From a virus (taxonomy: Duplodnaviria; Heunggongvirae; Uroviricota; Caudoviricetes), in IMG/VR virus record IMGVR_UViG_2698536471_000005: a stretch of 10,192 bases of DNA; one strand, given 5' to 3'. The notes beneath the pieces are model-generated. The model did not search any database. It was not told the DNA's origin and worked only from the letters and a program-made list of their open reading frames with translations. Position numbers and translations under genes: made by a program. Of this stretch, positions 9,907 through 10,192 are shown piece by piece. Position 1 is the stretch's first letter. Each line of letters starts with the position of its first letter.

Positions 9907-10026
9907 ATGTCATCAAAGAACAGAACCCGCAGAACAACAACCCGCAACATCCGATTTCCAAACCAGATGATTGAACAAATTAACATCGCTCTTGATCTGA
10001 AAGGTTCAGGAAACTTTTCAGCGTGA
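9907..10026 (+). CDS. Small basic protein (possible ribbon-helix-helix / YlcI-like prophage protein), 3' end truncated by IS insertion
   Basis: ATG at 9907 with GGGGA 6 nt upstream. Translation MSSKNRTRRTTTRNIRFPNQMIEQINIALDLKGSGNFSA, where NIRFPNQMIEQINIAL resembles the beta-strand/helix-1 of RHH (Arc/CopG-like) proteins. The stop codon TGA is the first 3 nt of the IS terminal repeat, so the native C-terminus is missing. Not in the ORF track (below its size cut-off). Confidence 0.5.
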   Translation: MSSKNRTRRTTTRNIRFPNQMIEQINIALDLKGSGNFSA

Positions 10027-10192
10027 ACCGCCCCGGAAATCCTGGAGACTAAACTCCCTGAGAAAGAGGTAAACAGGATGACTAAAAATACACGATTTTC
10101 CCCCGAGGTCCGTCAACGGGCAGTTCGTATGGTTCTGGAAAGTCAGGGCGAATATGACTCACAATGGGCGGCAATTTGTTCCATTGCCCCAA
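10024..10192 (+). mobile_element. IS3-family insertion sequence, left end (IS629/IS1203/IS3411-like), continues beyond window
   Basis: Terminal sequence begins TGAACCGCCCCGG... (IS3-family termini start with TG), followed about 54 nt later by the orfA start. The encoded N-terminus matches my recollection of IS629-type OrfA. The right end is outside the window, so the target-site duplication cannot be checked. Confidence 0.8.
10078..10192 (+). CDS. IS3-family transposase OrfA (N-terminal 38 codons; partial)
   Basis: ATG at 10078 preceded by AGAGGTAAACAGG. Translation [38 protein letters not shown] is open to the window end and resembles the HTH-containing OrfA N-terminus of IS629/IS1203-type elements. 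Confidence 0.8.

Follow-up and report, generated by a model that had tools for sequence, protein, structure and literature searches.

At the right-hand end of a lambdoid prophage, a small open reading frame close to the packaging site breaks off in sequence of a different kind, and we asked what had been inserted there, which gene it interrupts, and what this means for the state of the prophage. The window, by which we mean the whole stretch of 10,192 nucleotides analyzed here (virus record IMGVR_UViG_2698536471_000005), ends within the inserted sequence. The original prediction, made from the letters alone, was that an IS3-family element had truncated a phage gene next to cosN and that, together with an amber codon in the terminase gene, this marked a decaying prophage. 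The observation was confirmed and its interpretation is supported. An IS629/IS1203 element has very likely inserted into codon 40 of ylcI/ynfO, in a prophage that combines a terminase amber codon with an intact cos site. The features on which this reading is built are as follows.

7074 to 9002, minus strand: terminase large-subunit gene (gpA-like, 642 codons) with an amber codon at 7875 to 7877 (translation ...EKLDH*VLMDK)
9696 to 9707, no strand assigned: cosN, the 12-nt cohesive-end sequence AGGTCGCCGCCC, which is the reverse complement of lambda GGGCGGCGACCT and identical to lambda
9731 to 9737, no strand assigned: intact heptamer AGGACCC (lambda GGGTCCT), taken as cosQ from its correspondence with lambda
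9907 to 10026, plus strand: truncated ylcI/ynfO (DUF3950), 39 of 61 codons, with a TGA stop from the IS tip, assigned by comparison with the intact allele and by PF13132 and NF041551
10021 to 10023, no strand assigned: predicted target-site duplication GCG (AGCG if 4 bp)
10024 to 10192, plus strand: left end assigned to IS629/IS1203 (IS3 family), 169 of about 1,310 bp, ending with the window
10024 to 10048, plus strand: IRL, the left terminal inverted repeat, TGAACCGCCCCGGAAATCCTGGAGA
10078 to 10192, plus strand: codons 1 to 38 of orfA, the transposase gene, with ATG at 10078 and a frame open to the window end

We compared the terminal 169 bases (10024 to 10192) with 5,426 complete E. coli genomes by megablast. 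Matches to IS copies begin at query base 1 (the first bases from 10024 being TGAACCGCCCCGGAAATCC...), and all 169 bases aligned at 99.4% identity with an E value of 9e-81. The matches fall at 23,609 places in 5,895 E. coli records, from 3,623 of the 5,426 complete genomes; they lie on chromosomes and plasmids next to differing neighbor genes, which identifies a multicopy mobile element with unrelated flanks. Every matched copy bears the annotation of a transposase, either IS3-family or “IS3-like element IS1203 family”. When set against a full-length copy from O157 (L016, 1,310 bp), the window is identical at 168 of 169 positions, the lone difference being a synonymous A/T change at 10095 (A in the window). 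The left repeat begins with 5'-TG and is identical to that of the 1,310-bp copies L016, L001, and L002; left and right repeats, which we compared in full-length L016, share their first 13 nt and 22 of 25 positions overall. The orfA fragment agrees with orfA of the O157 copy at 38 of 38 amino acids; its match to PF01527 (HTH_Tnp_1) is weak and below the cut-off (E value of 0.001), and the full-length orfA of another copy, L015, matches the same model with an E value of 2.4e-12. Since 169 bp of the element are visible at this locus, orfB, the right repeat, and the duplication are known from copies elsewhere. These full-length relatives (L016, L015, L001, L002, L021, and L022) measure 1,309 to 1,310 bp and carry an orfB with matches to rve (E value of 2.4e-26) and to NF033516 transpos_IS3 (E value of 5.7e-93). 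A programmed −1 frameshift is annotated by RefSeq in full-length copies, and the full copy contains the slippery run GGAAAAAATGA. Judged by its sequence, the element belongs to the IS629/IS1203 group of the IS3 family and is of the type of the O157 copy; we infer that it is complete. The proposed left end at 10024 therefore stands, as does the proposed direction of orfA, which starts with the ATG at 10078 on the plus strand and reads away from cos.

IS629/IS1203 is the dominant insertion sequence of EHEC O157 and is common in O26, O103, O111, and Shigella. IS1203 is an isoform of IS629, with subtypes approximately 4 to 5% apart, and 62% of IS629 sites are located in prophages (PMC3271280). The window copy shares with the O157 element its left repeat, the start of orfA, and the 38 N-terminal residues, and its location in a prophage is that of most IS629 copies, but it differs by the one synonymous base and by an insertion site that is absent from the complete E. 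coli genomes searched. This is an already-known insertion sequence, ordinary for this kind of genome and no new system: its behavior here is familiar, and the lambdoid prophage that carries it is of a typical EHEC type.

The position of the insertion could be read from an empty site. The closest prophage with such a site, in E. coli OkiPb01713 (NZ_AP042682.1), shows 4 differences over the 10,025 bases of window 1 to 10025 and reads ...TTTTCAGCG TGG GTT ATT GAA... across the junction. Prophages with an intact site stop matching the window at 10025, in complete genomes and phage records alike. Because the TG at 10024 to 10025 is common to target and IS, the junction carries a 2-nt ambiguity. The TGA at 10024 to 10026 is the tip of the IS and also the stop codon of the 39-codon open reading frame at 9907 to 10026, and codon 40, which is TGG (Trp) in the empty site, is TGA in the window, so that the product ends at Ala39. 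This bears out the proposal that the IS provides the stop codon of a truncated small phage gene. In the mechanism that we propose, a 1,310-bp IS629/IS1203 element of the IS3 family would have landed in codon 40 of ylcI/ynfO, moving by copy-out/paste-in through a circular intermediate with an OrfAB transposase made via a −1 frameshift. Its left inverted repeat adjoins the 5' part of ylcI, with orfA directed away from cos; the IS bases TGA take the place of the invariant Trp codon, and the protein stops after Ala39.

Comparison with uninterrupted prophages, which the original prediction had suggested as a check, recovered the full reading frame as ylcI/ynfO, a gene of 61 amino acids in loci L003 and L004 (WP_001329960.1). 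PF13132 (DUF3950) recognizes both the fragment (32.9 bits) and the full-length protein (67.5 bits) at a cut-off of 25, and NF041551 scores the intact allele at 35.2 against a cut-off of 30. When 22 family members were aligned, conservation extended over residues 1 to 49 and the tails were variable; W40, V41, I42, C45, and R46 show no variation in any of the 22, and all five are missing from the truncated product. The AlphaFold model of YlcI (pLDDT of 75) has a basic unstructured N terminus, a helix at residues 19 to 32, a GSGN turn, and a second helix at residues 37 to 59. According to this model, the insertion would take away nearly all of the second helix, whose conserved part is W40 to L49, and because this conserved helix is removed, truncated YlcI is almost certainly nonfunctional. 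A ribbon-helix-helix fold for YlcI is weakly suggested; a PDB sequence search and Foldseek returned nothing significant for the protein.

The gene belongs to the same family (PF13132 and NF041551) and has the same position and orientation beside cos as ylcI (DLP12) and ynfO (Qin) of E. coli K-12; in contrast to these and to the lambda homologue, it is truncated at codon 39. In lambda-like genomes generally, ylcI is a small accessory gene of the right end whose transcription runs away from cos and counter to that of the late operon, to which it does not belong, since the head genes are encoded on the other strand. A right-end gene beside the packaging site has thus been cut, as claimed originally, but it is an accessory gene and neither a packaging nor a lysis gene. 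We also observed that lambda itself (NC_001416, L023) encodes a 64-amino-acid YlcI/YnfO homologue (MSTKNRTRR...KSDEE) at 48303 to 48109 on the minus strand, which is unannotated in RefSeq.

Although the insertion is close to cos, it leaves the packaging signals unaffected. Exactly 316 nt lie between cosN and the IS (9707 to 10024), in agreement with the approximately 316 bp originally given, and the IS is found ∼286 nt beyond the heptamer AGGACCC, which we take to be cosQ (lambda 48473 to 48479). The intervening DNA is of lambda type, with 90% identity between window 9708 to 10025 and lambda positions 48502 down to 48185 at the right end. Since the IS is on the far side of cosN and cosQ from the terminase genes, cosQ, cosN, and the terminase-side DNA of cosN are all intact. 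It is within the path of late transcription, which runs from the lysis genes across cos; given how Q antitermination works, an IS in this path would not need to be polar. Searches of 9400 to 10192 with Rfam gave nothing relevant, and the promoter and terminator scan gave background level only.

Two variations in this region were seen in passing. Position 9698, within cosN, is G in the window, in lambda, and in three other prophages, and it is C in NZ_AP042682.1; the prophage there, intact in other respects, therefore has a variant cosN with the cohesive end AGCTCGCCGCCC. The small terminase subunit (8974 to 9453) and the region up to cosN (9270 to 9670) are of a specificity type unlike those of lambda and phage 21: matches to the two phages stop near 8920 to 9270, and identity in the large subunit and the head genes is 92 to 96%.

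The second lesion affects the terminase large subunit. Position 7877 is A in the window and G in the intact relative, a CAG-to-TAG change on the minus strand at codon 376 of 642, which confirms the amber codon at 7875 to 7877 that had been noticed from the sequence. The gene is intact in L003 (WP_464351553.1), and the amber codon is also present in two further records, L005 and L015. For the product of intact relatives (641 to 642 amino acids), precomputed Pfam matches are to GpA_ATPase followed by GpA_nuclease; judging from this order, the truncated protein, which would keep the N-terminal 375 residues and lose most of the C-terminal half, should be missing the nuclease region. This nonsense mutation would be independent of the IS, and because of it, the prophage could not be expected to package itself without complementation. 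Defective prophages of this kind can reportedly be rescued by coresident prophages, as Asadulghani et al. are said to have described in 2009. The remaining head and tail open reading frames have the same length as in the intact relative. Decay of the prophage is thus real, with a nonsense codon and an IS to show for it, but the original claim needs the qualification that it is recent and at an early stage, given that only 4 bases separate the window from an intact prophage and that the other morphogenesis genes are full length. Compared with other defective EHEC lambdoid prophages, which carry IS elements and point mutations, it likewise combines an IS629 insertion with one nonsense mutation, which affects a morphogenesis gene that is essential; it is otherwise intact and has nothing distinctive. 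For annotation, ylcI should be marked as an IS629-disrupted pseudogene and the terminase gene as a pseudogene, in a prophage defective for self-packaging.

IS629-family copies are also found around ylcI in other prophages. We mapped them directly at four positions, namely, +161, +202, +217, and +258 from the ylcI start (loci L001, L002, L021, and L022), in both orientations; L002 and L022 have target duplications (GTC and TCCC, respectively), and L001 and L021 have none. Differing spans of matches suggest further insertion positions around the gene. In CE10-like strains (O7:K1 CE10), the match span suggests a copy upstream of ylcI, possibly between cos and ylcI. The prophages of O26:H11 11368, O103:H2 FWSEC0007, and M15 thus resemble the window in having the same IS family in the same interval, from cos to bor/iss or the lysis genes, with copies in both orientations and 3- to 4-bp duplications. 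The difference is that copies at +161 to +258 mostly spare the conserved core of ylcI, whereas the window IS at +117 cuts it. This spread is in line with the prophage bias of IS629 and with the absence of a known target motif; site specificity of the element has been described as unknown (PMC3271280). As a separate observation, erosion of this region has gone much further in L021 (O103:H2 FWSEC0007, positions 1 to 1808), where a different IS3-family element interrupts the gene for the terminase large subunit and ylcI is joined to the end of an IS.

The copy most closely related in position is that of a sister prophage, L015 (IMGVR_UViG_2534681674_000020, IS at 1892 to 3201). It has the same amber codon as the window and differs from it by 3 bases over approximately 7.7 kb of shared prophage sequence. 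It carries an IS629-family copy at the identical ylcI nucleotide, but inverted, so that the right repeat adjoins ylcI. This copy is of a different subtype, with 9 mismatches in 169 bases to the window copy and 43 in 1,310 to the O157 copy. Its other flank is a truncated lysozyme gene of the same prophage, with 2,307 bp deleted and no duplication. Since recombination within IS copies cannot swap the terminus that abuts the flank, L015 must reflect either another event mediated by transposase or an error of assembly. Some IS3-family elements are known to target IS ends. L015 may therefore have arisen at a bare ylcI site that is a hot spot, or a second IS in the lysozyme gene may have acted on the tip of a resident IS and deleted the intervening DNA.

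We next consider the far side of the window IS. IS629 makes 3- to 4-bp duplications (PMC3271280), and from this, the empty site, and the duplications at the neighboring copies, we infer that the IS is flanked by GCG or AGCG. For a simple insertion, the predicted right junction is ...GGGGCGGTTCA-(A)GCG-TGGGTTATTGAAGCC, ∼1.3 kb downstream, and the right repeat ...CCCGGGGCGGTTCA is expected ∼1,310 bp from 10024; searches for this junction gave no contiguous match in IMG/VR or, with chimeric queries in both orientations, in complete E. coli genomes. In O157 genomes, however, the duplication is kept at only 21 of 47 IS629 sites (PMC3271280), so that the far side of the window IS may be rearranged. 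The junction would then be real but would mark the breakpoint of an IS-mediated deletion or inversion, with something other than the rest of ylcI beyond it and with no target duplication. Besides the O157 proportion, the 2,307-bp deletion from the same nucleotide into the lysozyme gene of L015 and the missing duplications of L001 and L021 are in favor of such a breakpoint. The window itself shows no sign of rearrangement, though, and the neighboring-site copies L002 and L022 carry clean 3- to 4-bp duplications, and we consider a breakpoint rather unlikely, if by no means far-fetched.

A misassembly, in which the IS was joined to the prophage at a repeat while ylcI is intact in the real genome, has a classic cause at hand in an element with many copies per genome. 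The junction is, moreover, reproduced by no public closed genome, and in the orientation of the window, it was found exactly in none of the complete E. coli genomes, phage records, IMG/VR contigs, and metagenome contigs. Exact-junction scans of species-representative genome contigs with two patterns and a 25-mer junction scan of metagenomes yielded no match either; four IMG/VR and metagenome contigs retrieved in a 22-mer scan (L017 to L020) were discarded, because they share the 22-mer by chance in otherwise unrelated sequence. What speaks against a misjoin is an independent draft assembly, L005 (GCA_012765155.1), which is identical to window 1 to 10025, amber codon included, and ends with ...CAGCGTG at the junction; a contig stop at exactly this point is expected at the edge of a multicopy repeat. 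In addition, an IS end occupies this base in L015 too, and the junction is located exactly at the IS tip, as transposition predicts. A misjoin is accordingly very hard to credit, and insertion of IS629/IS1203 into ylcI is the reading that we retain.

Within this reading, position 117 of ylcI could be a specific hot spot for IS629-family elements that was hit independently more than once. The window has a left repeat and L015 a right repeat of another subtype at the same nucleotide, which recombination inside IS copies could not bring about by exchanging the IS end at the flank, and the ends of draft contigs that carry a second ylcI haplotype likewise fall at nucleotides 116 to 119; the copies at +161 to +258 in other prophages show that the neighborhood is used repeatedly. 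Against this, neither junction was found, in either orientation, in any of the 5,426 complete genomes, even though more than 1,500 of them carry this prophage type, and both closed cases are from one lineage. Draft contigs end at many ylcI positions (partial products of 35 to 52 amino acids), and a contig end by itself therefore says little about insertion. Furthermore, similarity between the target and the IS ends is not significant (local alignment with 500 shuffles, P = 0.19 here and P = 0.09 and 0.17 at two neighboring sites), and L015 can alternatively be accounted for if a second IS acted on the end of one already resident. Independent hits on a specific hot spot at this position thus appear doubtful, and a general hot spot at nucleotide 117 is unlikely, because insertions there were found in none of the complete E. 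coli genomes. A broader version, in which either nucleotide 117 or the tip of a resident IS is a preferred IS629-family target that was used at least two times in one lineage by elements that differ in subtype and are oppositely oriented, likewise seems improbable to us; if true, it would be the first concrete target-selection rule for IS629. As it stands, the L015 copy at the same nucleotide and in opposite orientation is a small lead on IS629 target choice or on its action on resident copies.

Positions of IS629 are used for typing of EHEC strains by IS-printing (cited in PMC3271280), and the site described here, being absent from closed genomes, could be used to mark a lineage. Breaks inside ylcI are very frequent in draft assemblies, with partial products of 35 to 52 amino acids on tens to hundreds of contigs each. 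We had considered these contigs as candidates for recurrent IS insertion and rejected them, because their ends are scattered across the gene; L005 is the only one that we counted. The 35-amino-acid class ends just before a C/T polymorphism at window position 10014, and contig breaks ahead of this position are probably due to coresident prophages that share the 5' part of the gene.
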